This document shows positions 11,661 to 32,172 of a stretch of 61,474 nucleotides of DNA, in pieces (position 1 is the stretch's first letter; each line of letters begins with the position of its first letter). This DNA is from a virus (lineage: Duplodnaviria; Caudoviricetes): positions 1-61,474 of IMG/VR virus record IMGVR_UViG_3300050132_000042, one strand, 5' to 3'. A program made the translations under genes and the position numbers. The notes beneath the pieces were generated by a model that was not told the DNA's origin, did not search any database, and saw only the letters and a list, made by a program, of their open reading frames with translations.

Positions 11661-11977
11661 CCGAGAAGAAGATCTACCTGGAGCACTGCATGCAGGCCGA
11701 CCCGCAGTTCTTGCGCGAGTGCCTGGATGAACCCAGCAGGTTCATGCGCCCGATCCATCTGCTGCTGATCAGGCTCGCGCTGAGAAAGCGAGGACTGGCA
11801 TGAGGACGTACTACTTGTATCAGTACAGCGGCGTGTCGCATCGGCGCACGCTCAACGACATGATCATTGCCACTGTGCGGGCGTCGAACACCGACGACGC
11901 ATGGTGGTTGTTCCAGGATCGCAACCCCAAGGTCAAGCGGTTCGTGGGCATCTGACATCTGACATAGGAGGACCATC

Positions 11978-12358: not shown

Positions 12359-12359
12359 G

Positions 12360-12686: not shown

Positions 12687-12975
12687 CAGGAGAATCAAAT
12701 GACACCATCCGATATCGAAGTGCTGCTGCATTACAACACCATCGGCACCCCTCACCCGCGCATCCACGCTCCCGCTGTCCGTCAAGGCATCGAGTGGTTC
12801 GTTCGCATGGATGTGCTCGCGCCTACTGTCGACGAAGGCGCCTATGAACTGACACCGAGAGGCAAAGCACTACTCAGCTTGCTCTGCAATACGCTGATGC
12901 CGACGCCCGCGTGGCTCGACGCTGCTGGCAACATCATCACCAAGTAAATCGCACATCTGACAGGAGAATCAAATG
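12678..12975 (+). repeat. 24-bp direct repeats flanking one gene
   Basis: CACATCTGACAGGAGAATCAAATG is identical at 12678-12701 and 12952-12975. Confidence 0.95.
12699..12947 (+). CDS. Small winged-helix-like hypothetical protein
   Basis: YELTPRGKALL wing motif; strong RBS. Confidence 0.65.
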   Translation: MTPSDIEVLLHYNTIGTPHPRIHAPAVRQGIEWFVRMDVLAPTVDEGAYELTPRGKALLSLLCNTLMPTPAWLDAAGNIITK

Positions 12976-13962
12976 GCTCACAATCTGAAGAAGAACGCGC
13001 AGGGCGTCGAGGAAATGGCATTCAACGTCGAGGGCGGCGTGCCCTGGCACAAGCTGGGCACTCCGGTCGACGGCCCGATGACCGTCGAGACCGCCAAGCG
13101 GGTGCTGCCGTTCACCTACCGCAAGGAGAAGCTGCTGCGGCCCAACGGCGAAGTGATCGAGGGTTACGAGAGCATCGTGATCAGCGACACCAACAAGATC
13201 ATGGGCATCGGCGGCAGCACGGCCAGCATCTACCAGCCCGAGGACTGCGCTCGCTTCGTCGAAGCGCTCTGCGACGAGAAGCAGTTGGTCGAGACCGTGG
13301 GCGCACTCGGCAACGGTGAGCGCATCTGGTTCCTCGTCCACACGCCCGATTATAAGTACGAAGTGTTCAAGGGCGACGAGCATCGGATGTACACGCTGAT
13401 CACCAACGCGTACGACTTCACTGCCGCGCTCGAAGCCCGCTACACCGACATCAGGGCCGTCTGCGAGAACACGGTCAACGCCGCGACCAGCGGTTCGCCC
13501 GCGACCGTGAAGATCAAGCACACGTCGAACATGCACCAGCGGGCCAACATCGCCGCCGAGATCTTCAAGGGCTACGTGCGAGCCAACGCGAACTTCAAGG
13601 AGGCGATGAAGTACTTGGCCAAGCATCCGATCACCGATGCGCTGGTGAAGGAGTTCACGATCAGCATGTTCGGCGATCCCGAGAAGACCGAAGAAGGTCG
13701 TGCGCAGACGATCCTGGCGAACAAGCTGAACAAGTTCGGCGAGTTGCTGGTGTGTGGGCGCGGCACTGACATCAAGGGCGTGGCCGGTTCGATGTATGGC
13801 ATGTTCAACGCGTTCACCGAGTATCAGGACTACTACTCGACCGTGCGCAACGCGAAGGACGCGAGCGGTGCTGTGAACCGCACGAGCAGCATCCTGTTCG
13901 GGCAGGCCAACAAGGAGAAGTCCAAGGCGCTCGAAGTCGCGCTTGTGCTGAGCGGAAGGTGA
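12973..13962 (+). CDS. DUF932 / TIGR03299 phage-plasmid family protein
   Basis: MAHNL...VPWHKLG...ETVGALGNGERIW...IRAVCENT...NAFTEYQD. Confidence 0.85.
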   Translation: MAHNLKKNAQGVEEMAFNVEGGVPWHKLGTPVDGPMTVETAKRVLPFTYRKEKLLRPNGEVIEGYESIVISDTNKIMGIGGSTASIYQPEDCARFVEALCDEKQLVETVGALGNGERIWFLVHTPDYKYEVFKGDEHRMYTLITNAYDFTAALEARYTDIRAVCENTVNAATSGSPATVKIKHTSNMHQRANIAAEIFKGYVRANANFKEAMKYLAKHPITDALVKEFTISMFGDPEKTEEGRAQTILANKLNKFGELLVCGRGTDIKGVAGSMYGMFNAFTEYQDYYSTVRNAKDASGAVNRTSSILFGQANKEKSKALEVALVLSGR

Positions 13963-15641: not shown

Positions 15642-16340
15642 ATGACCGCAGCGGCAGCAACCACACGAAAGAAGAAGCTGGCCAGCCCCAAGCAGCCCAC
15701 GGTCATGCAAGGTACCGAGGCATGGCGTCTGCTCCGGTGCGCGAAGGTGACAGCCTCGCGCATCTCTGATGTCATGAACTTCAAGAAGGACGGCAGCGAG
15801 TCGGCAGCACGCCGCGAGTACCGGCTCCAGGTCGTCACCGAGATGCTCACCGGCATCCCGTATGACTACGGCTTCGAGACTCCAGCCATGCGCTGGGGTC
15901 GAGAGACCGAGCCGCTCGCACGGATCGTCTACAGCGAGCTTGCCCAGGTAGCTGTGGACCAGATCGCATTCGTCGATCACCCCACCATCAAGAATGCAGG
16001 CGCATCGCCTGATGGTCTGGTCGGCAAGGACGGGCTGCTTGAATTGAAGTGTCCGACTTCGTTCACGCATCTGAATTACTTGCTCACCCCCGGCTCGATT
16101 GAGGGCGATTACATGGATCAGGTCCAGTGGCAGCTTGCCTGCACCAAGCGGCTGTGGTGCGATCTGGTTTCGTATGACCCGCGCATGCCTGAGAACCTGC
16201 GCGTGTATCGGATTCGCATCAAGCGAGACGAAGACCTGATCAAGAAGTACGAATTGAACGTGAACAAGTTCATCGACGAGTGCCGTGCGCTCGTCACCAC
16301 GTTGGCGTCCTACACGCCGACCCTTACAGCGAAAGGCTGA
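15642..16340 (+). CDS. YqaJ / lambda-exonuclease family nuclease
   Basis: QGTEAW...TASRI...MRWGRETEP...GASPDGL...LELKCP...QVQWQL. Confidence 0.9.
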   Translation: MTAAAATTRKKKLASPKQPTVMQGTEAWRLLRCAKVTASRISDVMNFKKDGSESAARREYRLQVVTEMLTGIPYDYGFETPAMRWGRETEPLARIVYSELAQVAVDQIAFVDHPTIKNAGASPDGLVGKDGLLELKCPTSFTHLNYLLTPGSIEGDYMDQVQWQLACTKRLWCDLVSYDPRMPENLRVYRIRIKRDEDLIKKYELNVNKFIDECRALVTTLASYTPTLTAKG

Positions 16341-17421: not shown

Positions 17422-17560
17422 TGCTCAAGCCCAAGCGGTTGTTGACCGAGAGCCCGTACTACTGCCCGCTGCGCTCGCGCCAATCAGTCAAAAATATCGG
17501 CAGAAAGAAAAAGCGAGATTGCGCGCAAACGTGCAGCGCTTTACACGCACGAGGAAAGAA

Positions 17561-19627
17561 GTGAGATTGCAAAAAGAAGATGCGAGGCGGTACGTGCCAA
17601 GAAAAAGTGTTAGGCCGGTTTGCGTCGATTTCGAGACCGAACCAATTCGGCCTCGCCCGGATTACCCCCCTAAACCAGTGGGAGTGTCTATTGTGTACCC
17701 AGGTCAAAAGTCCAGATATTATTCCTGGGGCCACCCCACAAAGAACAACTGCACTGAGGACGACGCTAAGCGGGCGCTGAAGCTAGCGTGGTCATGGAAT
17801 GATGGTGTGCTGGGTCATAACATACAGTTTGATTATGAAGTGGCAACCGCGCACATGGGCATGCCAGAACTTCCGTGGGATAAACTTTTTGAAACCATGT
17901 TCCTGCTGTTCCTTGACAACCCGCACGCCAAGGAGCTTGCACTGAAGCCCGCATGCGAGAGTCTGCTGGGTATGCCACCCGAGGAGCGTGATGCAGTTGG
18001 TGACTGGCTGTTCGAGCATGAGAGTGAACTGCATGCTTATGGCCTGTTGCCATCCGACGTGAGCTTGTCGCGAGACAAGAAGGCCAAACCGAGCAAGAGT
18101 GGCTGGCCGCAGTACTTCTCCGCCTGGGTCTGCCTTGCTCCTGGTGACATCGCTGGCAAGTATGCGAACGGTGACACCATCAGGACCGGCAAGCTGTTCG
18201 ACAAGTTGATGCCTGAGATCAAGAAGCGCAAGATGATGGAGGCGTACGACCGTGAGCGCAAGCTGATCCCGATTCTGATCGCCATCGAGCGGCAGGGCAT
18301 CCGGGTCGACCTGCAACGGCTTGATCATGACGCGCAGATGTACGACCAGTGCATGATTGACAGCGAGAAGTGGCTGCGCAAGAAGATGAAGGTCGGCGCT
18401 GATTTCAACCTCAACGCTGATCAGCAAGTCGTGCGGGCCATGGCCGCTGCTGGGCTGATCGATCTGGACAAGCTGGGCACCACGCCCAAGAGCAAGCCCG
18501 AGAAGATCACGTACAAGTCCGATGCCGACTCAATCGCAAACGCAGTCATCGACAAGGTGTTCGCAGGCGTGCTGAAGTATCGCAATCAACTCACCACCTG
18601 TTTGAACACGTTCATGAAGCCATGGCTCAAGGTGGCGCAGAAGTCTGGTGGGCTGATCTTCACTCACTGGAATCAGATCAGAAGTGAGAAGGCGGGCGCT
18701 CGCACGGGCCGGTTCTCATCGAGTCCGAACTTTCAGAACATCCCCACGATGTTCAAGCACATCTTCAAGCACACAGCATTGCGTGCCGCTGATGCGTGCG
18801 AGGAGAAAGACGAACAGGTCAAGCTGCTCGCACTGGCCAAGACCCTGCCAGTGCTGCCCCATGGGCTGCCGCTTACTGACTTGCCATTGTGTCGGGGCTA
18901 CATCATCCCGTACTTGCCGGGTCATCTGCTGATCGACCGTGACTTCTCCCAGCAGGAGCCGCGCATCTTCGCGCACTTCGAGGATGGGCCGCTGACTGCC
19001 GCGTACAACGCAAATCCATGGCTTGACCTGCATGATCATGCCAGTGACGAAATATTCAAGCTGCTGGGCAAGCGCTTCCCGCGCAAGAAGACGAAGATCA
19101 TCAACCTGGGGCTGCTCTACGGCAAGGGAATCAAGCTGCTCGCATCAGAACTTGATGACACTGAGGAAGTGGCGGCTGAACTGAAGAAGGCCGTGCTAAA
19201 GATCTTCCCCGGTCTACAGGAATTGAACAAGGACATGAAGCGGCGGGCCATGAGCAACCTGCCGTTCCGCACTTGGGGCGGGCGCGAGTACTTCTGCGAG
19301 CCGCCGAAGATCGTCGATGGTCGCACGATGACGTTCGATTACAAGATGATCAACTGTCTCGTGCAGGGTTCAGCAGCGGACTACACGAAGCAGGCGATGA
19401 TCGACTACTGGGAAGTGAAAGAGAAGGAGGTGTACTTGCTGCTCACGGTGCATGATGAATTGCTGACCAGTGCTCCAAGGGGGCCATTATTCAGTTCATA
19501 CATGAACACATTGCGCGATGCGATGCAGAAGCCCGAGCTTGACGTGCCGATGCGCAGCGAGGGCACGATCTCAGAAACCGATTGGGGCCACATGGCTCCG
19601 TACGATAAGAAAGGAGTGCTGGTATGA
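17561..19627 (+). CDS. polA: Family A DNA polymerase with a 3'-5' exonuclease domain
   Basis: ExoI VDFET, HNIQFD, RTGRFSSSPNFQNIP, motif A DFSQQEPR, motif B KIINLGLLYG, motif C TVHDE. Start codon uncertain (17519, 17561 or 17594). Confidence 0.95.
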   Translation: MRLQKEDARRYVPRKSVRPVCVDFETEPIRPRPDYPPKPVGVSIVYPGQKSRYYSWGHPTKNNCTEDDAKRALKLAWSWNDGVLGHNIQFDYEVATAHMGMPELPWDKLFETMFLLFLDNPHAKELALKPACESLLGMPPEERDAVGDWLFEHESELHAYGLLPSDVSLSRDKKAKPSKSGWPQYFSAWVCLAPGDIAGKYANGDTIRTGKLFDKLMPEIKKRKMMEAYDRERKLIPILIAIERQGIRVDLQRLDHDAQMYDQCMIDSEKWLRKKMKVGADFNLNADQQVVRAMAAAGLIDLDKLGTTPKSKPEKITYKSDADSIANAVIDKVFAGVLKYRNQLTTCLNTFMKPWLKVAQKSGGLIFTHWNQIRSEKAGARTGRFSSSPNFQNIPTMFKHIFKHTALRAADACEEKDEQVKLLALAKTLPVLPHGLPLTDLPLCRGYIIPYLPGHLLIDRDFSQQEPRIFAHFEDGPLTAAYNANPWLDLHDHASDEIFKLLGKRFPRKKTKIINLGLLYGKGIKLLASELDDTEEVAAELKKAVLKIFPGLQELNKDMKRRAMSNLPFRTWGGREYFCEPPKIVDGRTMTFDYKMINCLVQGSAADYTKQAMIDYWEVKEKEVYLLLTVHDELLTSAPRGPLFSSYMNTLRDAMQKPELDVPMRSEGTISETDWGHMAPYDKKGVLV

Positions 19628-19809: not shown

Positions 19810-20345
19810 TGCCGACTCGACTGAAGAACCTGAAGGAACGCGCGCAGGTCATCGCCAAGGGACTCAATCACGACATGGGCACTTTCAATCGCGTTGACGC
19901 GGACGGCAGCGTGTGGGTGTCGTTCTGCTATGGCTGCGGGAGACAGATGATGGTCGACCCGGTCGACGGTGCAGGCTGCTGGGGCATTGCGATGACCGAG
20001 TTCTGCGGGCCGGTGCAGCCGGAAGTGCCGAAAGAATGCCGCAGCATTGCTGAGCAGATGGAGATCATCGAACTGAAGTGCGAACCCGAGCCGACGCGGG
20101 AACAGATGACCGTCGCAATCGATGAACTGGCTGAGCATGAACTTGCCGCAGTCATGGGTGTTGACGCGGCGAGCGGACCGGACAGGACCGTCATGGTCAG
20201 CACTGGCCCTGATGGCAACATGATAACGCATGAGCATAAGCTGAAGCCGCAGGGCAAGCTCAAGGAGTTCCCCGATGGCTCGATCTACGAAATGCGCGGC
20301 GACGGCTGGCGACGGCGCGATGATCTGCGAAGGAGGTCGTCTTGA
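19809..20345 (+). CDS. Hypothetical protein
   Basis: TAATG overlap; GGAG RBS. Confidence 0.55.
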   Translation: MPTRLKNLKERAQVIAKGLNHDMGTFNRVDADGSVWVSFCYGCGRQMMVDPVDGAGCWGIAMTEFCGPVQPEVPKECRSIAEQMEIIELKCEPEPTREQMTVAIDELAEHELAAVMGVDAASGPDRTVMVSTGPDGNMITHEHKLKPQGKLKEFPDGSIYEMRGDGWRRRDDLRRRSS

Positions 20346-20998
20346 CTGACCGCTTCACCACATGGTCATACAGTGCGTACTCGCAGTGGCGCGAGTGCCC
20401 GCGCAAGGCGTACTACGCACGCATCCTCAAGCTGCCCCAGCCAAGCTCGCCGCAGATGGATCGCGGCACTGCGATCCATCAGCTTGCCCAGGATTTCGTC
20501 GAGGGCAAGCACGTCGACATTCCCAACGAGTTGCGGCCATTCAAGGCGCAGTTCACCATGCTGCGCGACTCGAAAGCAATGTGCGAGCAGAACTGGGGCT
20601 TCACGTCGACATGGCAGCCGTGCGGGTTCTTCTCGCCCGACGTGTGGCTGCGCGTGAAGTGCGATGCCACCTACTATCAGTCACCGACCATCGCCGTGAT
20701 CGTCGATCACAAGACTGGCAAGATCTACGACGAGCATCATGATCAGCTTGATCTGTACGCGACTGTGGGCTTCATCATGCTCCCCGATGCACGCAAGATC
20801 ATCGCACAGGACTGGTATCTCGATCAGGACGCAGTGGTCGAAGATGTGTTCGAGTCGAAGCAGTCACGAGCACTGCGGCAGAAGTGGGACAAGCTGGTCG
20901 AGCCGTACTTCAACGATGACATCTTCCCATGCAAGCCGTCACCGAAATGCAAGTGGTGCGCATTCAGCAAGGCCAACCTTGGGCCTTGCGACTTCTGA
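20342..20998 (+). CDS. PD-(D/E)XK (Cas4/RecB-like) exonuclease
   Basis: WSYS...CPRK...RGTAIH...KCDA...VDHKTGK...QLDLY...CKWC...C. Confidence 0.85.
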   Translation: MTDRFTTWSYSAYSQWRECPRKAYYARILKLPQPSSPQMDRGTAIHQLAQDFVEGKHVDIPNELRPFKAQFTMLRDSKAMCEQNWGFTSTWQPCGFFSPDVWLRVKCDATYYQSPTIAVIVDHKTGKIYDEHHDQLDLYATVGFIMLPDARKIIAQDWYLDQDAVVEDVFESKQSRALRQKWDKLVEPYFNDDIFPCKPSPKCKWCAFSKANLGPCDF

Positions 20999-21006
20999 GG
21001 TGAACC

Positions 21007-21231
21007 ATGCGAATACTTTGTCTGATTTCCGGCGGTTGTCACTTTCAGACCTTGCGCGAGGAGTGGCTACCGCCCGACAAGCACTATCAGTACTCCCGGC
21101 TGTATCGCGTCGATGAGTGCCCGTGGTGCCATGACACACGAGCTACGATCACATCACCAGAGCCGGATGAGACGCGCACCACGCTACCGCGTCGGTTCCT
21201 GGACAATGGTCGATCTGAGGTGAAGGCATGA
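21007..21231 (+). CDS. Hypothetical protein
   Basis: GAGGTG RBS. Confidence 0.5.
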   Translation: MRILCLISGGCHFQTLREEWLPPDKHYQYSRLYRVDECPWCHDTRATITSPEPDETRTTLPRRFLDNGRSEVKA

Positions 21232-21391
21232 GACAAATCATTGCTGATTTACGCGGGGGCATTCCTGACAAGTGCGACTGCTGCGGGCGTGTCACACCAC
21301 CAGACGATCTTGAGCCTGTGTCTGGCGGAGAGTGGATCTGCGTCAAGTGCTTAGAGGCTGAACTTGATGCCATTCGAGCAGAGCGCGATCT

Positions 21392-21751
21392 ATGACCGGC
21401 CCCGAAGCAACCATCGAGCAGCGCGTCAACGAACGCGCCGAGAACGAGCTTGGGCTGCTGAATAGCAAGCTGGGCAAGGACGGCATGCCTGATCGTTGCT
21501 ACTGGATGCCGCAGGGCAAGCCAATCCTCATCGAGTACAAGGCACCGGGCGAACAGCCGACCAAGCGGCAGTGGTACTGGATCAATTTTCTGAGAGGACT
21601 TTCGTATGATGTCCAATGGTTCGATGATGCAGACAGAGCTTTCGATTATCTCGCCGCAGCCGTGGCGTCCTACACCATACATGATAAGGGGAACCCGCTT
21701 CCTGCTGGAGCACGCCAACGCTGCCGTGCTGGCCAAGCCGGGAGGTCGTAA
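21392..21751 (+). CDS. VRR-NUC nuclease
   Basis: EATIE...GMPDR...IEYKAPG...Q. Confidence 0.85.
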   Translation: MTGPEATIEQRVNERAENELGLLNSKLGKDGMPDRCYWMPQGKPILIEYKAPGEQPTKRQWYWINFLRGLSYDVQWFDDADRAFDYLAAAVASYTIHDKGNPLPAGARQRCRAGQAGRS

Positions 21752-23138
21752 GACCAGCATCACGCTCGCCGCGCTAAAGATTCTGTTCGACAAGAAGATG
21801 ATCAACCGCGTGCTGATCGTCGCCCCTCGTCTGGTTTGTTATGACACTTGGCCCGGCGAGATGGAGAAGTGGCTCGACTTCAACGGCTTCACCTATGCCG
21901 TGCTGCACGAGGGCGGCAAGGACTTCGATCTCATCCCACGCGTGCAGGTCTGCCTGATCAACTACGAGGGGGTGGACTGGCTGTTGGGCACAGTGAAGGA
22001 GAAGTATCAGGCCAAGGTGCGCAACAAGTGGACCGGCGGCATGGTCGACAGCACGCGCGTACGAGTGACGACGAACATGAAGCGCTTCAAGAGCTTCGGC
22101 TTCGACGTGCTGGTGATCGACGAACTCAGCAAGTACAAGCACCAGGACACGATCAGGTTCAAGGCACTCAAGGAGGTGATTCATACCTTCCGCTATCGCT
22201 GGGGCCTCACTGGTTCGCCTGCGGCCAACGGGCTGATCGATCTGTTCGGCCAGTGCTGGATTCTCGATCAGGGCAATGCGTTGGGCAAGTTCGTGACCCA
22301 CTTCCGCAAGGAGTACTTCGACGAAGACCCGCACACGCTGGAGTACGCCCTGAAGGAAGGTGCCGAGGAGAAGATCTACGAACGCATCGCCCCGCTAGCG
22401 TTCGTGCCTACCGAGCAGGACTACGAGCAACTTCCCGAGATGGTGATCCAGGACATCATGATCGATCTGCCTGATGACGTTCGCCGCATCTACGACGAAC
22501 TTCAGGATGATCTGATCACCGGCATCAAGAATCACATCATCGTCGCCAAGAACGCAGGCGCAGCCGCTACGAAATGTCGCCAAGTTGCCAGCGGCGGGAT
22601 CTACGTCAAGGATGCCCCGGTCATCGGCCAGAAGGCTGGGGCGCGTGAGTGGGTGAACCTGCACACCGAGAAGGTCGACGCGCTGATGGACTTGTTCGAG
22701 GAGCTTCAGCATGACCCGTTGCTGATCGCGTACGACTTCGAGCATGATATGGATCGTCTGCGCAAGAAGTTCAAGGGCAAGAACATCGTGTTCGCCTGTG
22801 ACGTTGCGCCTGCTGATTTCCGCAGGTTGGTGCAGCGCTGGAACAACGGCGATATCGATGGGTTGTTCGGTCATCCGGCGTCTATCGGGCACGGCCTGAA
22901 CTTGCAGGACGCAGGGTGCCATGTCGCATGGCATACGATGATCTACGATTTCGATCTGTACGATCAGTACAACCGGCGCGTGCTACGCAGCGGCAACAAG
23001 AGCAAGCGCGTGTTCATTCACCATTTCATTGCGCGTGACACGATTGATGAGATCGAAGCAGGCATGATGAAGTCGAAGGATCACACGCAGACATCGCTGT
23101 TTGCGGGGCTGCAACGACTGGGCAGGATCAGAGCGTGA
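21606..23138 (+). CDS. SNF2-family (SF2) helicase
   Basis: KPGGRKT, IDELS, LTGSP, GHGLNLQ and QYNRRVLRSG motifs. Confidence 0.9.
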   Translation: MMSNGSMMQTELSIISPQPWRPTPYMIRGTRFLLEHANAAVLAKPGGRKTSITLAALKILFDKKMINRVLIVAPRLVCYDTWPGEMEKWLDFNGFTYAVLHEGGKDFDLIPRVQVCLINYEGVDWLLGTVKEKYQAKVRNKWTGGMVDSTRVRVTTNMKRFKSFGFDVLVIDELSKYKHQDTIRFKALKEVIHTFRYRWGLTGSPAANGLIDLFGQCWILDQGNALGKFVTHFRKEYFDEDPHTLEYALKEGAEEKIYERIAPLAFVPTEQDYEQLPEMVIQDIMIDLPDDVRRIYDELQDDLITGIKNHIIVAKNAGAAATKCRQVASGGIYVKDAPVIGQKAGAREWVNLHTEKVDALMDLFEELQHDPLLIAYDFEHDMDRLRKKFKGKNIVFACDVAPADFRRLVQRWNNGDIDGLFGHPASIGHGLNLQDAGCHVAWHTMIYDFDLYDQYNRRVLRSGNKSKRVFIHHFIARDTIDEIEAGMMKSKDHTQTSLFAGLQRLGRIRA

Positions 23139-23264
23139 TTTGCCTCCGAAGATTTTGCATTATCCGAACCAAGAAAATGAACAGCGACGCGGCTTCGAGC
23201 CGATTCCTAGAACTTGTGGTCGACAGGCAAATCCTGTCCATCTGCACCATCCCAAGGAGAAGTC

Positions 23265-23477
23265 ATGGAAATGACCCCCGAGAACCTGGAAATAGTGAAG
23301 GGCTATCACAAAGAAATCCGCGATCTCAAGGCTGATCGCGACCACTGGCTGGATCGGCACACGGTTGCCGCCACCGCACTCGACGCCGCCAATACGAAAC
23401 TGACCCAGATGGTTGTTTGGCTCGAAGCGAACCAGCCGGATGTGTTTAAGCGCGGCATCTGGGGTTCCCTCAAGTAG
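23265..23477 (+). CDS. Cassette gene 1, coiled-coil hypothetical protein
   Basis: AAGGAGA RBS; MEMTPENLEIV. Confidence 0.65.
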   Translation: MEMTPENLEIVKGYHKEIRDLKADRDHWLDRHTVAATALDAANTKLTQMVVWLEANQPDVFKRGIWGSLK

Positions 23478-23497
23478 CGCCTGTCCAGGAGAACACC

Positions 23498-23635
23498 GTG
23501 CCCAAGAGCCGAAAGAACCCCAAGCGCAAGTTGACCCGGTGCGGGAACTGCCGGAAAGGGATGGTTTACCGGGGATCCTTGCCCCTCCGCATTTGTTCGC
23601 TATGCCACGGGACCGGCATGGTCCCTGAGAAATAG
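23498..23635 (+). CDS. Cassette gene 2, 45-aa zinc-finger peptide
   Basis: Own translation MPKSRKNPKRKLTRCGNCRKG...CSLCHGTGMVPEK; AGGAGA RBS. Confidence 0.65.
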   Translation: MPKSRKNPKRKLTRCGNCRKGMVYRGSLPLRICSLCHGTGMVPEK

Positions 23636-23660
23636 CACCTGTCCAGATGCGGGAGGCATC

Positions 23661-23801
23661 GTGAAACTCGCATGGCGCAAGCCTGACAATCCAACACTCT
23701 GGATCTTTGGGTTCATTTCCCTGATCTACCCCGGTACCGGAGAGCGCACTTACTCCATTTCCCTGGGGCGCTGGACCATCGTTTTGTTCCCCAAATCCTA
23801 A
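23661..23801 (+). CDS. Cassette gene 3, 46-aa hydrophobic peptide
   Basis: Own translation MKLAWRKPDNPTLWIFGFISLIYPG...LFPKS; GGGAGG RBS. Confidence 0.55.
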   Translation: MKLAWRKPDNPTLWIFGFISLIYPGTGERTYSISLGRWTIVLFPKS

Positions 23802-23824
23802 TCTGTCCAGATGCGGGAGGCATC

Positions 23825-24121
23825 GTGATCGAAGAACCCAACCCCTACAACCCGAAATACCGCATCCAATCGCATGGCTATGAAGCCTACGCAAAAGACC
23901 TTCGTGCCTGGGGTGATTCGCTCAAAGCCAGGGTCGCGGAACTGGAGCGTGACAAGGAGATCCTTGGCGAGCGGATTCGGGAAGTAGAGGTGAAGTGGCA
24001 GCGCACGGATGATGCGTTGGTCCGATATGGGGTGGCGTTGGCGCGGATCGTTGAGCGCCACACCGAAGGAACCCTGTTCCCTCAGACTGCCGCAAACATT
24101 GCCGCCGAAGCCCTCAAGTAG
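23825..24121 (+). CDS. Cassette gene 4, coiled-coil hypothetical protein
   Basis: GGGAGG RBS; LKARVAELERDK. Confidence 0.65.
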   Translation: MIEEPNPYNPKYRIQSHGYEAYAKDLRAWGDSLKARVAELERDKEILGERIREVEVKWQRTDDALVRYGVALARIVERHTEGTLFPQTAANIAAEALK

Positions 24122-24142
24122 CACCTGTCCAGGAGACTGCCG

Positions 24143-24475
24143 ATGAAAACCGCGAACATTGCTCCCGCCTACGCCGGTCTTTACGCTGGGCTATGCGAGG
24201 TGGCCCGAGAGAACGGCTACGCCCTGGCGATCCACGGCTCCCTCGCCAACGACATGGATCTGGTGGCCGTTCCCTGGATTGATGAGGCCGTGGCTCCCGA
24301 GGTTCTGGCCGAGGCCATATGGAAGCGCGTCCAATGGCTCAACCACCAGAACCAGTTCCCCTACCAGCCCAGTGCCATGCCCCATGGTCGCCTTGCGTGG
24401 TTCTTCCCGCTGCTCCAGGCCCCGCCAAACGAGGGCCGCTCTGGGATCGACCTTTCCATTACCCCGCGCACCTAG
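24143..24475 (+). CDS. Cassette gene 5, minimal nucleotidyltransferase-like protein
   Basis: GYALAIHGSLANDMDLVAVPW (GS...DxD). Confidence 0.65.
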   Translation: MKTANIAPAYAGLYAGLCEVARENGYALAIHGSLANDMDLVAVPWIDEAVAPEVLAEAIWKRVQWLNHQNQFPYQPSAMPHGRLAWFFPLLQAPPNEGRSGIDLSITPRT

Positions 24476-24517
24476 CGCACCTGTCCATTATCAGCCGTCT
24501 AACTAAAGGAGAACAGC

Positions 24518-24757
24518 ATGAAGAAGAAACTGCTCAGAGCAATCATCAACCTGATCGAAGACCTGAAAAGCAGTCAGCGTGAAGACGCGATTCGTGCCGA
24601 CGAACGCAAGCGCATCTTCAAGTTCTTCGACGGCAGCGAATCACTGACTGACTATCCGTTCGTCGTTACTCACTTCAATGATCGAAACAAGGACGGCGAC
24701 CCGTCGTTATACAGTGGCGACGACCTGCGCAAGATCCTGAAGGATGGTGTGCTGTGA
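24518..24757 (+). CDS. Hypothetical protein
   Basis: AAAGGAGA RBS. Confidence 0.6.
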   Translation: MKKKLLRAIINLIEDLKSSQREDAIRADERKRIFKFFDGSESLTDYPFVVTHFNDRNKDGDPSLYSGDDLRKILKDGVL

Positions 24758-24911
24758 TCAAGCGGGCGAGCTTCCTGGACATCACATCCATTGCAGTCCT
24801 ATCCACGGCCATTACGGTGGGTGCCCAGGCCACGCCGATCAAGTGGGGTGTGCTTGCATTCATCGCGGCCATCGCGATGCTGCATCTCTTGGACAGCATC
24901 AGGAGGAAAGT

Positions 24912-25064
24912 ATGAACTCGCTCATGTTGGTCATGGTGCTGCTGATGTCGCTCACGATCACGCTCGCGTTCTTCTGCCCGCTCGAATACAAGTACGCGGC
25001 AGTGATCCCGCTGATCGCCATGGCGTTCCTGGCCCGACTGTTCATCTGGGGACGACGCACATGA
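24912..25064 (+). CDS. Small two-TM membrane protein
   Basis: AGGAGG RBS; MNSLMLVMVLLMSLTITLAFF. Confidence 0.55.
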   Translation: MNSLMLVMVLLMSLTITLAFFCPLEYKYAAVIPLIAMAFLARLFIWGRRT

Positions 25065-25243
25065 ACAAGCTGAAGTGGAATCTTCTGATGCTCAAGCTCG
25101 ATGTCGATATCGGCTTGGTATCGATGATAGTGTTTCTGATCGTCCTGCTGATCATCTGCTTCTCGGTCAGCTACGGCATGACACGCTGGCAGGATCATGA
25201 AGCGGTGAAGTGGAATGTGGAACATCACAGGAGCAACTCATGA
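25061..25243 (+). CDS. Small membrane protein
   Basis: ATGA overlap; one hydrophobic segment. Confidence 0.5.
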   Translation: MNKLKWNLLMLKLDVDIGLVSMIVFLIVLLIICFSVSYGMTRWQDHEAVKWNVEHHRSNS

Positions 25244-25761
25244 GATCATCCGATCTTTGTCATGGCGATGTGCTGCTGTTCAACTGGCAAGCGCACCAGA
25301 GCATCTACGAGCGCGGTATCCGACTGATCACCGGCAGTCGGTTCGTGCATTGCGCCATCGTGCAGGAAGTTATTCTTGGGCCATACGTAAGAACCATTCT
25401 CGTGCTGGAACAGCTTCAGGAACGCCGCTGTGAGCCGGTCGAACTGTACAAGCCAGATCCGCAGTGCTCGATCATCTGCATGCGCCCCAAGTTCACGCCG
25501 CTGCCGTTCAACGCTGCTTTCGTGAATCACGCAGGATACAACTACTGGTCCATCGCTGACTCGCTGATCAATCACTTGCTGCACAGGCTCACGCTGAAGC
25601 GCTGGCAGTTCAGGCCCATGCTCACCAAGCTGAAGCCCGACCTGTATGACTGCTCGCAGCTTGTTGCGAAGCTGCTGAATGACAAGCTGTGGCAGACGCA
25701 GGAGCCCGACGACTTCTTCAACAATTCTGCATTCGACAATCTCGGAATCATCGAGTGGTGA
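25240..25761 (+). CDS. Permuted papain-like NlpC/P60 (YiiX-like) enzyme
   Basis: GDVLL...SRFVHCAIV (His first) ... YDCSQLVA (Cys later). Confidence 0.7.
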   Translation: MRSSDLCHGDVLLFNWQAHQSIYERGIRLITGSRFVHCAIVQEVILGPYVRTILVLEQLQERRCEPVELYKPDPQCSIICMRPKFTPLPFNAAFVNHAGYNYWSIADSLINHLLHRLTLKRWQFRPMLTKLKPDLYDCSQLVAKLLNDKLWQTQEPDDFFNNSAFDNLGIIEW

Positions 25762-25781
25762 AATCCTTCAAGGAGGAACTC

Positions 25782-26114
25782 ATGTCCGCAATCTCTGCAA
25801 TCGGCGGCTCAGCCGCTCCTGCATCACCCCACGCAGTCTCTCCTGCTGCTCATGCGCCTCATGGTGGTCACAAGCATGGCGGGCAGAACGACGACGTGCT
25901 GATCATCAGCCAGGATGGCATGGACGCACTCGCTGCATCGTCCGGCACAGTTGATCTGGTCGATCACAAGCATCATAAGCACCATCATGATCTTGCCCTG
26001 CTGGTCTACACGGACCCACGCATGGGTCATGGCCATGCGCAGTCATCAGGCGCAGTCGCCGCAGTGGGCACGGCTGGCTCTGCTGCTCCATCAGGCGGGG
26101 GCGCGGCGAAATGA
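25782..26114 (+). CDS. His-rich low-complexity protein
   Basis: AAGGAGG RBS; HKHHKHHH tract. Confidence 0.55.
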   Translation: MSAISAIGGSAAPASPHAVSPAAHAPHGGHKHGGQNDDVLIISQDGMDALAASSGTVDLVDHKHHKHHHDLALLVYTDPRMGHGHAQSSGAVAAVGTAGSAAPSGGGAAK

Positions 26115-26262
26115 AACGTGACAGCGCATGGGATGCATCTCGCGTTCCTGATGTGCTGATTGGGTGCAGTCGGCTCATACGGGAACTGATCGTCGAGCGG
26201 GAACAACTCAAGAAACAGGTCAAAGCATTGCGGGAAGAACTGCTGTCATGCAAGGAGCATCG

Positions 26263-27339
26263 ATGAAAATCATATCGATCACCGTATCATCCGATACGAA
26301 AGAAGCAATCATCGGTGACGCACTGCGTTCAGTCATTGACTGGGTCGACATCGCGTTGCTGGTGCATATTCCCGGCTTCGGTGACGACCGTACGCAGAAA
26401 ATATTCAATCATATTGCCGGAAGCAAGATGCGCATGATCGCGGTGGGCCACGACGACCCGTTCGCTGAGATGCGCAACGCTGGACTGCGCTTCTGCGATG
26501 ATCAGTATGAGGATGTGTGGTCGTGCCAGCTTGACACTGATGAGCGCATGATGCTCAACAACGTGAACATTCGTGCCACGTTGGCCAAGCTCGACAAGAG
26601 CGTGCAGGCTGTCACGGTGTTCGATGACACTGGTGCGTACGATAAGGTGCGCTTCATCCGGCATCCCACTGGGCTGCGATACTTCCAGAACTTTCACGAG
26701 GAACTGGTACCCGAGCCCGTGACTCGCTCGATCACCGGGGTCCGCTTCCATGAACTGTCGAAGACACCCGAGCAGATCGTCGAGCGCGTGAAGCGGCAAG
26801 TGATCGAAGCGCAAGCGCAGATCGAGATTGAGCCCGACAACCCACGCTGGCATTACTACCGAGCATCAGCGCTGGAGAAGCTAGGTCAGACTCAGGAAGC
26901 GATTGCGGCATACATGGGCGCAATCGAACGATTCAAGAACGATGAGCCGAGGGCGTGGTGCTGCTTCCGCATTGCCTGCTGCTATGCGGGCATCGGCGAT
27001 TCAGTGCGGGCAATCGGCACAGCACTGCATGGCATGGTGTACCAGCCGAACTACCCTGAACTGCCGTGGCTGATCGCGTCGATCTGCATGTCACAGAACA
27101 AACCGTACGATGCGCTGCACTGGGCCAGGATCGCCGCGCTGAACAACTGGTCGCGCAAGCGGGCCACAGAGATCAACCGCATCGGCTTCAAGGAGCCGCT
27201 CGCGCTGTACGAGGGACCGTACCAGATCATGATGACTGCGAACAACATGATCGGCAGATCATTCGATGCAGCGTGGGCTGCGGGCGAGATGAGGCAGGCG
27301 ATCAAGGCGCGCAAGCAATTCTTCGAGCAAGGTAGATAG
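26263..27339 (+). CDS. GT2-like glycosyltransferase with TPR repeats
   Basis: DDRT, FAEMRNAGL, LDTDER (DxD), FHEEL; TPR-like NPRWHYYRA...EAIAAY. Confidence 0.8.
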   Translation: MKIISITVSSDTKEAIIGDALRSVIDWVDIALLVHIPGFGDDRTQKIFNHIAGSKMRMIAVGHDDPFAEMRNAGLRFCDDQYEDVWSCQLDTDERMMLNNVNIRATLAKLDKSVQAVTVFDDTGAYDKVRFIRHPTGLRYFQNFHEELVPEPVTRSITGVRFHELSKTPEQIVERVKRQVIEAQAQIEIEPDNPRWHYYRASALEKLGQTQEAIAAYMGAIERFKNDEPRAWCCFRIACCYAGIGDSVRAIGTALHGMVYQPNYPELPWLIASICMSQNKPYDALHWARIAALNNWSRKRATEINRIGFKEPLALYEGPYQIMMTANNMIGRSFDAAWAAGEMRQAIKARKQFFEQGR

Positions 27340-27340
27340 C

Positions 27341-27370
27341 AATGCCCCGGTGCTGAACCGGGGCATTTTC
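27341..27370. terminator. Terminator at the convergence of the two genome arms
   Basis: AATGCCCCGGT-gctga-ACCGGGGCATT followed by TT. Confidence 0.75.
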
Positions 27371-27376
27371 ATGTAC

Positions 27377-27970
27377 TCAGAACCGGATCATCAGACTGAC
27401 TGCGACCTCGCCGCCATGCAGCACGCCCCCCGCTGGTGTCGTCATGGATACGAAACCAACCCTGCCGCCCAGCCGGAACGGGCCGATATCCCGCTGCGCC
27501 AGGACGCTCCTGGTGTTGCCCCACGGGTTGACTGCGTATTCCAGGCCCGCCGCCCAGTTCAACGTCTTGGGGGCCTGCCCAGCGTTGACCACGACCGTAT
27601 CCTGACCCGAGACGACCGTGCCGTTCGGGCTGCTGGTGATGATTCGCTCGCCGCCATCGGGTTCCTTGACCAGTGACCAGTCGATAATGACCGGCGTGTG
27701 GGGCAGTTCGTCGGGCTGGATCGTAGCCTCGCCCGTGCGTTCGACGACATCACCTTTCGGGATGATCTGCTTCGGCTTGGCCTTCGGATTCTCCTTGCGC
27801 TCCAGAACCAGCGAGTTGTCGGTCTGCCGAACTTCCGGCTTCGGCGCGACTGCACTCGGCGGCAGCGGCTTCGGTTGGTACAACTTCCAACCGAGTCCAA
27901 GCCCCGAGGCGAACCCGGCAAGGACCAGCACCGAGCCCAGGATCACATACGACTTCGTTGTCATCGTCAT
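27377..27970 (-). CDS. Lysis accessory (spanin-like) protein with an N-terminal TM and C-terminal amphipathic beta-strands ending in Phe
   Basis: Last gene of the lysis cluster; TM YVILGSVLVLAGFASGLGLGW; ends VAVSLMIRF. Confidence 0.5.
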   Translation of the reverse strand: MTMTTKSYVILGSVLVLAGFASGLGLGWKLYQPKPLPPSAVAPKPEVRQTDNSLVLERKENPKAKPKQIIPKGDVVERTGEATIQPDELPHTPVIIDWSLVKEPDGGERIITSSPNGTVVSGQDTVVVNAGQAPKTLNWAAGLEYAVNPWGNTRSVLAQRDIGPFRLGGRVGFVSMTTPAGGVLHGGEVAVSLMIRF

Positions 27971-29089: not shown

Positions 29090-30235
29090 CTACGTCTTGA
29101 TGATGAAGTTGACGGTGACATACGGAGGAAGCGACGTGGCAGTAGTGGCTGTACCACTCACGGCCCCGGTATTACCCGTTGAACTCGGAGTGGCATGGCC
29201 ATTCTCGAAGACGTACCCAGGAGCCCCTTCAGCGCTTGCATCGGCTGTTTCAATACTTGGCCCGACGTGGACGTGAGCGATCAGGGCTTGTGCCGAACCG
29301 CCTGAAGCGCCGAGTGCGTACGACCCATTGTGGCCGATGGGGAAGTTGCCGCCCATGTTGGGCACATTGAAGGTCAACGAGCCATCGCCTGCGCCATATG
29401 TCGTGCTGATTGCAGTGAACAATGCCGCATAGGTTGCACGGCTCACGGCTGAGCCATCGCAGAGCAGGAACCCGGAGGGCGCGGACGATCCGCCGAATGG
29501 CAGAATAGCTGCCACAGGGACAGATGATGCCGGAGTGACGGAATATTGGGATGGGACTGGATTCACCAGTACAAACGATGTCGTTGCAGCATCCCAGAAG
29601 CATTCGTAAATGACACCGCTTACGATGTCACCAGCTTGTACTGCTGACCCATCATTTCGCACAAGCGGATGAGTGCCTGAACCCACATCAAGAGTGCCAG
29701 CAGTCGTGCTGGTCGTACTGGCCTTGAACGCAAATCTCATACCTCTATAGAGTTGCGCGGTGCCGGGGATGGTGGCAATAACAAATGCATTCGTGCCCCC
29801 TGTATCAATCGCATAGTTACCTGCACATGCTGTATTGCCGCCGCCCCACACGGCCCAATCCACGTTATCGACATTGGCGAACGTGTTCGGGTCACTACTT
29901 GCCCCAGCAGTCAAGCACTGGAATGAGTGAGAGAAATCATTAGATGCGATCACAGCGCCGATAGGATAACCCACAGCGGACGCAAAGGAACTATCCCACT
30001 TAAAGCGACCCCCTGCGTTGCTGTAGACGAGCACCGAACTCAACTCATAATATATGCCATTGAAGTCCTGCCCCGCAGGGGGGACGCCACCGGAACTGAT
30101 TGGCTCCATGGTGACAGGTGGAAATCCATCATGCCACGATGCGTTAGGCGATGCTGATGGATACGAAATGATATTCTTCAGCCCAGCATATGCAAAGGGC
30201 TGCTGGAGGATGGTGGGGTATGCTGGACCGCTCAT
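29090..30235 (-). CDS. Tail fibre with collar domain
   Basis: ASW.DGFPPVTM.P...GG.PP.GQDFNG N-terminus; collar APSGFLLCDGSAVSRATYAALF...PPYVTVNFIIKT. Confidence 0.9.
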   Translation of the reverse strand: MSGPAYPTILQQPFAYAGLKNIISYPSASPNASWHDGFPPVTMEPISSGGVPPAGQDFNGIYYELSSVLVYSNAGGRFKWDSSFASAVGYPIGAVIASNDFSHSFQCLTAGASSDPNTFANVDNVDWAVWGGGNTACAGNYAIDTGGTNAFVIATIPGTAQLYRGMRFAFKASTTSTTAGTLDVGSGTHPLVRNDGSAVQAGDIVSGVIYECFWDAATTSFVLVNPVPSQYSVTPASSVPVAAILPFGGSSAPSGFLLCDGSAVSRATYAALFTAISTTYGAGDGSLTFNVPNMGGNFPIGHNGSYALGASGGSAQALIAHVHVGPSIETADASAEGAPGYVFENGHATPSSTGNTGAVSGTATTATSLPPYVTVNFIIKT

Positions 30236-30256
30236 GCTGATGCTCCTGTTGGTTAG

Positions 30257-30934
30257 TTAAGATTGAACCGTGTGCTTGATAGTGGCACCGAACGTGCCTT
30301 GACCGAATGGTTGTAGACCCGTTCCAGCAAACCCAAAACAAGTGGCCGTGTCAATGGTAAGAATGTACGAGAGAACGCCAACGGGTCGTTGAAGCGCGCC
30401 AGACGTTGTGAGAATGGCCAGATCTGTATCTGTGAGTACAAATCCGAAGAAGTACTGCATTTCCATATTACCGATATCTATAACGTATGCCTTGAGTCCT
30501 GCGTATGGCCTACCCGGAGCCAGGAACAAGTTATAGAGAATCAGATTAATCACAGGCGCAGAGCAGTCATTGATATTGGAAAGCGCCTTGGCAAGAAGCA
30601 ATGTTCGGTAGTCGTCGTCACTAAGATCAAATGGGACTGACACGAAGTAGCCATCATAAAATGGTGCTTGATCAAACGGCTGATAGCCGCCCCCCTCGCT
30701 GAAACCAAAATAAGTCACGCTTGGGTCAGGCACATCTATCGCGCGAGACACACCAACTCGTCTGCCCCACATATCGAGACCGTAGCCCTCTGCTGTGCTG
30801 ATATTCCATACCTTAGTAATGAAATCCTGAAGATTGGAACGTGGGTCGATATCATCATTCCAATCTGCCAAGATCTGCATGATGATTGGGCTATTTGCGT
30901 ACTGGCTTGCTATCGCCTGAATTGGATTGATCAT
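30257..30934 (-). CDS. Baseplate wedge protein (DUF2612-like)
   Basis: SQYANSP...A.GYGLDMWGRRVGVSR...FDQAPFY. Confidence 0.85.
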   Translation of the reverse strand: MINPIQAIASQYANSPIIMQILADWNDDIDPRSNLQDFITKVWNISTAEGYGLDMWGRRVGVSRAIDVPDPSVTYFGFSEGGGYQPFDQAPFYDGYFVSVPFDLSDDDYRTLLLAKALSNINDCSAPVINLILYNLFLAPGRPYAGLKAYVIDIGNMEMQYFFGFVLTDTDLAILTTSGALQRPVGVLSYILTIDTATCFGFAGTGLQPFGQGTFGATIKHTVQS

Positions 30935-32172
30935 ACGATCCCCACCTGAATAGTGCTGCCATCAATGGGCACATGAGGATATTGATCAATATTAGTCGGT
31001 AAATCGAGACCGCTGGGGTTGGGTGCAGCGCCCACCCCGATACTGATAACCTGAACGTTTGGCGACACGCCACTGACTGGGCCGTACAATGACCCCGCAT
31101 AAACTGTGCTACCAATAGCCCCAAATGTATTGTTGGGGGTGCTGAATAAACTTAATATTTCCGACTTGATCAGATCTGCAAGATTCGCGGGTAGCCCCGG
31201 TATGAATTTGATCACGATGTTGATGTAGATATTTACAGCAGATGGTTGCTCGTATGTCACCGAGTATTGGGGGTACGGGGGCGACAATAACGATCTATCC
31301 TCAACTGTCAATGTAGTGTTTCCATTGTAGTCGCATCCCACACTTTTCTTTGACCAAATTGCATTGGCGATGGACTGAGGGTCTCCACCCAGAGCGGCCA
31401 CGTACACCGAGTGCGCCGCGAGTGCTACGCCGCCGATGACTGCTACAGTATTAGTAAAGTTTTCAGTGACATAGACATTGCTGGGAGTATTTGGTACGGG
31501 CAGATCAGCACCGCTAGAAATGACAGCAGCACGGATTGACTGCAAGTTAGCTACTGCATTCGCTGCAACCGATGCCTGTCTGCGCAACTCAAAATCTTGT
31601 GACGACTCGACGTTTGTACCTTCGATCAAATCATCAGGGTTCACAATGCCAGACCACCCCGGCACAGCCAAGTAGATCTGATTAAGCTTGCCAGATACAC
31701 ATGGGATCGGGCCAGTTTTCTGATTGGCGAAATTCAGAATGATCGAACCAGAAGGGGGGATCGTTCCGCCATCCTGACAGAGATAAATATTCTGATTGTT
31801 GTCGCTGGCCTGCGCATTCACAGGAATGACCGTTCCCGGAAGTCCAGTACAGACACACGGCCCATTCGTGGCAGTGGCCGGGAACCGAGTCTGAAAGTAG
31901 AGCAGCCCTATGGCATCCTGCATCGACCCCTGTGCGAACTGCGGATCGACCTGAGATACGAAATATGCAAACAGATCATTCTTATCCGCGATGTACGCGG
32001 ACACAGAAGTAGCAAGCTGCCCCTGCGGCGTCGACAGCGCTTCAGGAGATGACGCGTTGAGCGTGCCGCCGAACGCCGAATTTATATCTGCCATAACGGC
32101 ACTGAGAACGTCGGCATCTGCCGGTTCTATATACCCGGTAGGGCCAAGGACGGGTTCCGGAACAGTTGACAT
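30931..32172 (-). CDS. Baseplate J-like wedge protein
   Basis: TPQGQLA...DP..AQG.MQDAIG...G.NVES..DFELRR. Confidence 0.9.
   Translation of the reverse strand: MSTVPEPVLGPTGYIEPADADVLSAVMADINSAFGGTLNASSPEALSTPQGQLATSVSAYIADKNDLFAYFVSQVDPQFAQGSMQDAIGLLYFQTRFPATATNGPCVCTGLPGTVIPVNAQASDNNQNIYLCQDGGTIPPSGSIILNFANQKTGPIPCVSGKLNQIYLAVPGWSGIVNPDDLIEGTNVESSQDFELRRQASVAANAVANLQSIRAAVISSGADLPVPNTPSNVYVTENFTNTVAVIGGVALAAHSVYVAALGGDPQSIANAIWSKKSVGCDYNGNTTLTVEDRSLLSPPYPQYSVTYEQPSAVNIYINIVIKFIPGLPANLADLIKSEILSLFSTPNNTFGAIGSTVYAGSLYGPVSGVSPNVQVISIGVGAAPNPSGLDLPTNIDQYPHVPIDGSTIQVGIV

Follow-up and report, generated by a model that had tools for sequence, protein, structure and literature searches.

Integrons combine a tyrosine recombinase (IntI), an attI site and folded attC sites of 57-141 nt with promoterless, co-oriented cassettes and a short boundary word. 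How phages gain and lose their own small genes is an old question, in which exchange guided by linkers is set against random joins followed by selection, and outside T4-type phages, defined linkers have proved elusive. In T4-type phages, ORFans are flanked and shuffled by the promoter-early stem-loops (PeSL), modules of about 100 bp that carry a sigma-70 promoter and a terminator stem-loop; such exchange was demonstrated for close relatives, and mini-circles were shown as well (parts of Arbiol et al. 2010, PMC2839356, and Comeau et al. 2014, PMC4122927). In lambdoid phages, short conserved boundary sequences were proposed to be homologous-recombination sites that generate mosaicism at module boundaries (PMC3029335, in part). 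Other described sites are the start-associated sequence and its extended form (SAS/ESAS) of Cluster K mycobacteriophages, which has 13 bp, contains the Shine-Dalgarno sequence (SD), lies 3-7 bp from the start and belongs to one phage cluster (Pope et al. 2011, PMC3203893, in part), and the stoperators of Cluster A mycobacteriophages, asymmetric 13-bp sites bound by a monomeric protein, the immunity repressor, across the genomes of temperate phages (parts of PMC9283540 and PMC3203893). Here, we analyzed IMG/VR record IMGVR_UViG_3300050132_000042, a complete record of 61,474 bases from a peat phage (the window, i.e., the whole record), in which the word TGTCCA separates the genes of an array of small genes. 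In an extended form of 12 nt, this word marks essentially every junction of such arrays in phages that share almost nothing else. We hold, with confidence a little above even, that the motif is a conserved junction signal and doubles as a short linker in the exchange of single-gene cassettes.

A junction site in arrays of small genes

The array holds six genes (g1 to g6), each preceded by a junction (J0 to J5) with a copy of TGTCCA (coordinates in Table 1). The word is found in all six gaps between the open reading frames (ORFs; gaps of 126, 20, 25, 23, 21, and 42 nt, 257 nt in total) and always on the + strand. From J1 to J5, the upstream stop is followed after 2-6 nt by TGTCCA, then by the SD and the start codon, exactly where an earlier note on this DNA had placed five junctions of stop, motif, ribosome-binding site, and start. 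That note had described five genes and a motif of the CTGTCCA type. The array stands, but it has six motif-preceded genes, g6 being the addition, and the core of the motif is TGTCCA. The note had also proposed to look for an enrichment of the motif, which is not found over the whole window (9 matches to CTGTCCA on both strands versus 10.06 expected), though the placement departs strongly from chance: of the 15 copies of TGTCCA on the + strand, 6 fall inside 1250 nt, a clustering reached by only 16 of 200,000 random placements. Other hexamers are also clustered on the + strand within 1250 nt (nine copies of GCCCTT, eight of CACTTC).

The surroundings of the word are partly repeated from one junction to another. 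As noticed previously for two successive junctions, J2 and J3 have 26 identical bases (23639-23664 and 23803-23828), and J4 is like J1 at 25 of 26 nt, including the last three codons of the upstream gene. The inverted repeat GACAGG/CCTGTC that had been described around the first copy is indeed there and gives a 6-bp stem, with a z-score of -1.52 in its context of 71 nt, which is not significant. Folds of J1 to J5 computed with RNA parameters are not stabler than those of shuffled sequences (z-scores of +1.45, +1.66, +0.36, +0.82, and -0.13). In other phages, some of the leaders, i.e., the bases between motif and start, hold hairpins of 5-7 bp.

The array has the same composition as the remainder of the window (G+C of 0.578 versus 0.575), and g1, g2, g3, g5, and g6 have a G+C content at third codon positions (GC3) of 0.66-0.80, overlapping with the 0.70-0.79 of the flanking genes. 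Hence, the claim that the cassettes have a codon style of their own was not confirmed. The genes 3' of the array overlap one another by GTGA/ATGA, much as had been said of the flanks. No promoter-like site lies in 23139-24757; the wider region 20500-27800 has just one, at 26263, beyond the array, which also lacks + strand terminator-like sites. The array is best explained as a hyperplastic block of small non-structural genes, putatively early and promoterless, which would be read from upstream as one operon.

The window has a second junction word, CACATCTGACA, which stands before the SD of four + strand genes in the region 9863-12991. The copies, at 9863, 11952, 12676, and 12950, are those of the early-region look-alike, CACATCTGACAGGAG, to which the motif had already been compared. 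The leader of the copy at 9863, GGAGAACACC, is the same as the leader of J1. This other junction word, searched as the 17-mer CACATCTGACAGGAGAA, had no match in IMG/VR. It thus seems private to this phage, unlike TGTCCA.

We then turn to the same architecture in other phages, for which all comparison sequences are metagenome assemblies. A search with an 18-nt junction word retrieved one other viral contig (G001), in which a run of small genes is again punctuated: nine copies lie on the same strand in 2.3 kb, each after a stop and ahead of an SD. The exact 21-mer of J2 and J3 retrieved 10 viral contigs, 45 metagenome loci, and 3 contigs from metagenome-assembled genomes (MAGs), whose labels conflict (Methanomicrobiales, Myxococcales, and Bryobacteraceae). 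Additional copies of TGTCCA, outside the search word, punctuate runs of same-strand small genes in these loci: T[GA]TCCA is present 307 times on the array strand of the 45 metagenome loci and 124 times on the other, one copy per locus being there by construction. The 12 arrays that we listed comprise 96 called cassettes, all co-oriented, with a median of 75 aa and few shared families. They were found in phage contigs or genomes of 48-65% G+C, where the arrays have a G+C of 0.55-0.63 and the remainder of the genomes 0.48-0.645. In G010, the values are 0.585 for the array, 0.482 for the rest, and 0.459 for the flanks. This uniformity of the arrays, against the variety of the genomes, fits an import from a common pool.

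To define the site, we collected 205 distinct junctions from 39 sequences. The base at -1 is never G, and the base at -5 is G in 76% of the junctions. When the stop lies 3 nt before the motif, the base at -5 is G in 51 of 53 cases (TGA), and when it lies 4 nt before, in 27 of 30 (TAG); at a spacing of 1 nt, a G stands directly ahead of the stop in 26 of 29. The constant site is thus longer than the earlier note saw: it is G-N3-H-TGTCCA, a 12-nt asymmetric site. The G at -5 is not a by-product of the stop codons, since the choice of stop follows the register. This explains the many TAG stops of the array and speaks for a specific reader that spans about one helical turn. The motif keeps close to the upstream stop (0-7 nt), to which it is anchored, while the start follows at anything from 10 to 95 nt. 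Among 417 distinct + strand copies of TGTCCA in 62 sequences, 197 lie within 0-7 nt after the stop of a frame of at least 30 codons. For comparison, the same was found for 377 of 5000 random positions (7.5%), for 3.5-14% of the copies of eight one-mismatch hexamers, and for 5.9% of those of the reverse complement. TATCCA is a rare variant of the motif.

The cargo is diverse. Larger cassettes in the arrays of three genomes (G006, G008, and G012; loci L035, L040, and L049) match DUF5131 (E 1.4e-95), Nmad5 (E 1.2e-16), and the N-terminal part of a D12 adenine methylase (E 1.4e-15), and these types linked to the modification of DNA or nucleotides suggest accessory or anti-restriction cargo. An array gene of G008, behind a TATCCA (around 29700-30340 of the oriented record), encodes a long series of ADLRR/ADLRG five-residue repeats that is pentapeptide-repeat-like. 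Some units are "empty" (30921-30969 in G008 and 8449-8553 in G001, both oriented): a motif and leader are followed, after 20-50 nt, by a tail and another motif, and no gene is enclosed. Cassettes may have been lost from such places.

Exchange of units between phages

The clearest single cassette is g5. Its close homologs (91% amino-acid identity; L003-L006) are likewise flanked by TGTCCA, upstream and downstream. Upstream, g5 has three different neighbours in G003, G004, and the window; downstream there are two, the neighbour in the other phages differing from that of the window. Positions 24124-24487, which are 88-89% identical to G002-G005, are the only DNA that the window shares with those records; the stretch starts 2 nt before one motif and ends at 24487, the last base of the next. 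Beyond g5, six gene families are common to the arrays of different phages, each at a different position and with different neighbours, and the only conserved gene order is a block identical between G003 and G004. The expectation that homologs would carry the same flanking motif in other orders and genomes has therefore been borne out. Homologs lacking the motif, which had been named as the observation that would speak against capture, exist among distant relatives: those of g5 (32-52%; L007-L012) and of g1 (62-63%; L099 and L100) are without it, while the close homologs of g5 are flanked by it. The motif thus belongs to a set of phages rather than to gene families.

Recent joints can be placed more precisely. 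The loci L068 and L090 have in common one unit of 135 nt, from motif to motif, at 97.8% identity, and their flanks differ on both sides. G004 is 99.97-100% identical to G005, G003, and G002 over 3264, 3997, and 1414 nt, respectively, starting 1 nt before a TGTCCA, and the DNA upstream is unrelated; the last three are overlapping records of one phage, other than G004. Pairs at least 93% identical gave eight array-linked ends of identity, at -8, -1, -1, 0, +9, +14, +25, and +35 from the start of the motif, and one further end outside any array. The left identity ends 8, 1, and 0 nt before the motif in three pairs that are 99.6-100% identical. With looser thresholds, we counted 41 distinct ends in arrays; 7 of the 24 left ends lie at -8 to 0, 4 of the 17 right ends coincide with the final base of the motif, and the others are in leaders or within genes.

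Contigs from four other public runs, labelled as peat, freshwater, and permafrost metagenomes, add independent cases; they leave 23492-23565 and 23714-24083 uncovered. In two of these runs, g5 is found at about 99% identity joined to different upstream DNA, with breaks at 24121 and 24124, i.e., 5 and 2 nt before the motif. A contig of run X3 has a relative of the helicase end that runs through J0 and diverges at 23241 into a different leader and gene. Homologs of g1 in runs X2-X4 are similar from the ATG onwards, behind other leaders. No circle or deletion joint was seen in the four runs, of which assembled contigs only were searched.

Leaders and tails also occur in varied combinations. The tail CCGAAAGGCTGA, comprising the last residues and the stop, ends seven different genes and is followed by seven different leaders. 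The 21-mer leader was counted at 34 junctions, where it follows 33 different upstream sequences and precedes 33 distinct gene bodies, in loci ascertained by that word. Hence, the two sides of the motif assort independently. The sharing of tails has a visible effect on the proteins: unrelated cassette products end alike, as in ...PKG* (CCGAAAGGCTGA), ...PKP* (CCGAAACCGTAA), ...AQATA*, and ...LK* (g1 and g4 of the window), since their genes share, as junction tails, the final 10-20 nt ahead of the stop. Such tails are seen, e.g., in G004, G006, G007, G008, G012, and at J1 and J4 of the window, and some form small hairpins (e.g., AGCC-GAAA-GGCT).

Phage background and candidate explanations

The phages that carry the site have little else in common. 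With blastn, the window matched five other records only over 102 nt (in G001) and at the g5 cassette. BLAST of the proteins, at an E-value of 1e-8 or 1e-4, found no family common to all motif phages, and the most widely shared one is present in 5 of 11 genomes. Five genomes, the window included, are rated 99-100% complete by CheckV. In these five we found no tyrosine recombinase or integrase (0 matches to PF00589; the control was positive in 14 of 14 genomes) and no serine recombinase or resolvase. The window phage, having no integrase, is probably virulent. A PD-(D/E)XK nuclease is present in two of the five and a YqaJ exonuclease in one. The suggestion that YqaJ or annealing machinery drives the exchange is thus right about the presence of YqaJ in the window, but the gene is in only one complete genome of five and no annealing protein was identified. 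PF00940, used to search for T7-type RNA polymerases, had no match in the five genomes, but the control for this search was unable to give a signal. Finally, the word TGTCCAGGAG is not enriched in two MAGs with motif contigs (7 and 9 copies versus 14 and 17 for the control).

In the window, replication functions are encoded on the + strand, from about 3.2 to 27.3 kb, and late genes on the - strand (Table 1). Relatives were found in IMG/VR neither for the SNF2 helicase nor for g4, and the window has no tRNA genes. The closest neighbours of g5 in a protein atlas are viral hypothetical clusters (score of 0.96); the nearest named ones are of nucleotidyltransferase fold, at only 0.76-0.78, which is a lead rather than an assignment. 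Elsewhere, the - strand (457-2582) encodes a 541-aa protein matching PHROGs of ParB-like nucleases and DNA methyltransferases and, adjoining it, a 180-aa protein matching a PHROG labelled RNase E (E 5.7e-14); neither has a BLAST counterpart in other motif phages. A long (CGT)n run on the + strand (50098-50238), within a - strand gene (49565-50581), would encode an acidic homopolymer stretch.

Table 1. Coordinates of the array, its junctions and the replication genes of the window.
Feature	Position	Strand	Remarks
Primase-helicase	3576-5669	+	
3'-5' exonuclease	7455-7982	+	
YqaJ-type exonuclease	15723-16148	+	
Family A DNA polymerase	17519-19627	+	
PD-(D/E)XK nuclease	20342-20998	+	
SNF2-family DNA helicase, last conserved gene ahead of the array	21606-23138	+	phrog_62 E 1.8e-108, PF00176 E 2.7e-11
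Inverted repeat GACAGG-caaat-CCTGTC, 3' arm overlapping the first TGTCCA	23222-23238	+	sequence
J0, first TGTCCA	23235-23240	+	97 nt past the helicase stop, 24 nt before the g1 start, without G at -5
g1, 70 aa, no family	23265-23477	+	ORF, AAGGAG before ATG; no PHROG/Pfam match
J1, TAGcgcc-TGTCCA-GGAGaacaccGTG	23482-23487	+	stop ends 4 nt ahead; the G at -5 is the G of TAG
g2, 45 aa, CxxC...CxxC, zinc-ribbon-like	23498-23635	+	GC3 0.80 versus 0.53 at second codon positions
J2, TGTCCA and leader GATGCGGGAGGCATC, then GTG	23640-23660	+	GATGC/GCATC hairpin, SD in the loop
g3, 46 aa, hydrophobic, no family	23661-23801	+	ORF; no PHROG/Pfam match
J3, second copy of the 21-mer junction of J2 (TAAtc-TGTCCA...)	23804-23824	+	
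g4, 98 aa, coiled-coil-like, no family	23825-24121	+	no PHROG/Pfam match
J4, TAGcacc-TGTCCA-GGAGactgccgATG	24126-24131	+	sequence
g5, 110 aa, viral family phrog_35913, exchanged cassette	24143-24475	+	phrog_35913 E 9.8e-18
J5, TAGcgcacc-TGTCCA, then a 30-nt leader	24482-24487	+	
g6, 79 aa, last motif-preceded gene	24518-24757	+	GTGA overlap with the next gene

The reading that we favour, a junction signal that doubles as a linker, would work as follows. Each gene unit opens with G-N3-H-TGTCCA, whose degenerate part takes in the upstream stop, and continues with a private leader and the start codon, the leader having an SD often within or beside a small hairpin. The site would be a specific recognition signal, whose candidate readers are a host factor or a fast-evolving phage protein, acting on DNA or on polycistronic RNA. 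Many phages of peat, permafrost, and freshwater communities, otherwise unrelated, carry it in identical form, so that any two junctions have a short stretch of homology in register. Whether the phages are co-infecting or the junctions lie in one genome, recombination between them could then swap, insert, or delete units of leader and gene while leaving the genes intact, and such exchange would create a common pool of cassettes. Several results weigh against this account. The 6-7 shared bases are very short for homologous recombination, the intergenic space holds little beyond motif and leader, and joints at gene boundaries are also expected from selection acting on random illegitimate joins. 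One 1.5-kb deletion, between L075 and L094, has its joints at +25 and +35, with nine foreign bases, and did not use the motif. To place a single leader before 33 unrelated genes, joins at the start codon are required, and a crossover at TGTCCA cannot produce these. Outside the arrays, TGTCCA shows no avoidance (148 copies versus 167 expected on the array strand, 134 versus 143 on the other), and hence the bare hexamer is neither harmful nor a strong hotspot by itself. The G004-type joint rests on one assembly, and the comparison loci were retrieved with words that bear the motif. The motif may guide the crossover, or it may just survive at junctions that selection would favour in any case.

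It is rather unlikely, although worth serious weight, that the site is purely regulatory, an operator or an RNA signal, with the mosaicism due to ordinary illegitimate recombination and selection in which the motif plays no part. It could be a translational operator, a processing site that frees cistrons with a hairpin-capped 5' end, a coupling signal for terminating ribosomes, or a stoperator-like roadblock. The hexamer is strictly conserved, with one-mismatch forms hardly used, the G at -5 is imposed even on the choice of the stop codon, and the site has a single orientation, always between stop and SD, all of which would suit a regulatory signal. So would the many leaders with a hairpin right after the motif or including it (e.g., GTCCAGG...CCTGGAC or GATGC...GCATC), the joints away from the motif, and the parallels with sites of proposed or shown regulatory roles, SAS (PMC3203893, in part) and stoperators (PMC9283540, in part). 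However, regulation leaves unexplained why phages with no detectable shared regulator keep the same site, and it accounts poorly for a motif anchored to the stop instead of the SD or start, and for an identity that ends so close to the motif in the three nearly identical pairs. The low counts of TGTCCAGGAG in the MAGs and the foreign G+C of the arrays in G010 and G011, which points to import, count against it too. A dedicated site-specific cassette system, in which a phage or host recombinase or nuclease would cut DNA or exchange strands at G-N3-H-TGTCCA and move leader-gene units in and out, perhaps via circles, seems to us quite improbable. Its appeal comes from the specificity and asymmetry of the 12-nt site, from the presence of exactly one copy per junction with units in register, from homology that spans motif to motif, from joints 0-1 nt from the edge of the motif in three pairs of 97.8-100% identity, and from the independent assortment of both sides. 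Yet the five complete genomes have neither a tyrosine nor a serine recombinase, no protein family is common to the motif phages, and the large cassettes (DUF5131, the D12 methylase fragment, and Nmad5) are not recombinases. The junctions also lack a folded attC-like structure (z-scores of +0.36 to +1.66 for J1-J4, -0.13 for J5), the offsets of the joints vary from -8 to +35, with no fixed phosphodiester, the hexamer is not avoided elsewhere, and circle or deletion joints are absent from the contigs of the four runs. Gene content thus lends no support to a dedicated recombinase, although the host might supply such an enzyme. In its boldest form, the site would be the crossover point of a true integrase-less cassette system, with a host or phage enzyme moving single leader-gene units in a shared mobile pool of small host-takeover or anti-defence genes; we give this low credence. 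If it were true, the arrays would function like integrons while lacking both IntI and attC, with a pool shared by unrelated phages of the same hosts.

The last alternative is a word present by chance in short spacers, or a chimeric assembly of metagenomes at a repeat. The whole-window count of CTGTCCA and the origin of all comparison sequences from metagenome assemblies could be taken to favour it. Nevertheless, the clustering is rarely reached by random placement and the word is in six gaps of six, the same architecture is found in 39 independent sequences, and the G003-type joint was assembled identically in three records. Current assemblers usually use k-mers longer than 7-20 nt, and the words shared at the joints have 7-20 nt. 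This explanation is thus barely conceivable, and refuted as far as computation allows. Some narrower candidates were tried and rejected. A phage RNA-polymerase promoter does not match the conservation of only 6-12 nt, and the leaders of 10-14 nt already contain the SD; a host sigma-70 promoter or an intrinsic terminator was not found at the junctions. For a conserved RNA structure or known RNA family, the folds are unstable, the best Rfam hit is a chance match (E 0.58), and there are no tRNAs. A general host translation signal is contradicted by the lack of enrichment in the two MAGs and, by reasoning only, by the position on the wrong side of the SD for pairing with the 16S RNA. TGTCCA and TATCCA are the cores of DnaA box consensuses, but -1 is T in just 23% and +6 is C in just 8% of the junctions. 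As common readers, a zinc-ribbon cassette was found in 9 of 12 arrays by a crude pattern, not in all, and a phage protein was not found by BLAST at either threshold.

Comparison with known systems

The two functions in question would have different consequences. Should the word guide exchange, it would mark out a community of phages from different lineages, in peat and freshwater, that share genes. The word would then provide a handle to locate an accessory, possibly anti-defence, gene pool in metagenomes, help to predict which phages trade genes, and allow a direct test of the linker hypothesis. If it is only regulatory, it is still a signal common to unrelated phages, which would imply a shared host factor. 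A literature search for TGTCCA with phage and intergenic found nothing relevant, supplementary files being outside the search. Chi-like hotspots are short oriented words, over-represented and strand-skewed in the host genome, that RecBCD/AddAB reads; here, TGTCCAGGAG is not enriched in the two MAGs searched, and the labels of the three MAGs disagree.

For the regulatory reading, SAS and stoperators seem to be formal parallels. Stoperators lie in short intergenic spaces, in one orientation relative to transcription. They resemble the array site in being short and asymmetric, but in the window, sites of the junction type occur only in 23235-24487, and neither an integrase nor a resolvase is encoded by the complete genomes (stoperators as described in parts of PMC9283540 and PMC3203893). 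SAS (PMC3203893, in part) is like the array site asymmetric, in one orientation, restricted to the non-structural region, and upstream of the starts of different families, and the reader of each is not known. In contrast, TGTCCA precedes the SD, with 10-95 nt between it and the start, is anchored to the stop, and is not confined to one cluster.

The analogy with integrons, which had been raised as an integrase-less capture system, is only partly supported. The arrays have promoterless single-gene units in one orientation, diverse cargo mostly without assigned function, and a short boundary word. The delimitation of cassettes by the motif and the absence of an integrase were both confirmed, whereas a dedicated capture system, attC-like folds, and a common recombinase were not. 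There is no IntI (0 matches to PF00589 in five of five genomes) and no attI, and where attC sites are long and folded, the gaps here have 20-42 nt and are unstructured by folds with RNA parameters.

The short boundary sequences of lambdoid phages fit in spirit, being short and at module boundaries (part of PMC3029335). Here, however, one defined word is at essentially every array junction, recurs across lineages, and delimits a unit that is a single small gene. The closest known system appears to be the PeSL of T4-type phages, and we found nothing closer in the literature on short-homology cassettes in phages. As described in parts of PMC2839356 and PMC4122927, PeSLs have about 100 bp, against a constant part of 6-12 nt here. 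Their sigma-70 early promoter is absent from the window array, where leaders of 10-14 nt leave no room for it, and their terminator stem-loop has no counterpart among the + strand sites or the unstructured J1-J5. PeSL exchange was shown among close relatives, whereas the site described here is common to phages that share almost no genes. In both cases, a repeated intergenic module begins at the stop of one gene and reaches as far as the SD and start of the following one, lies directly upstream of ORFans in hyperplastic regions, and is the proposed exchange point for the insertion, deletion, or replacement of single genes that spares the genes themselves. Like a PeSL, the array site precedes ORFans in a plastic region and marks the boundaries of insertions, deletions, and replacements between phages.

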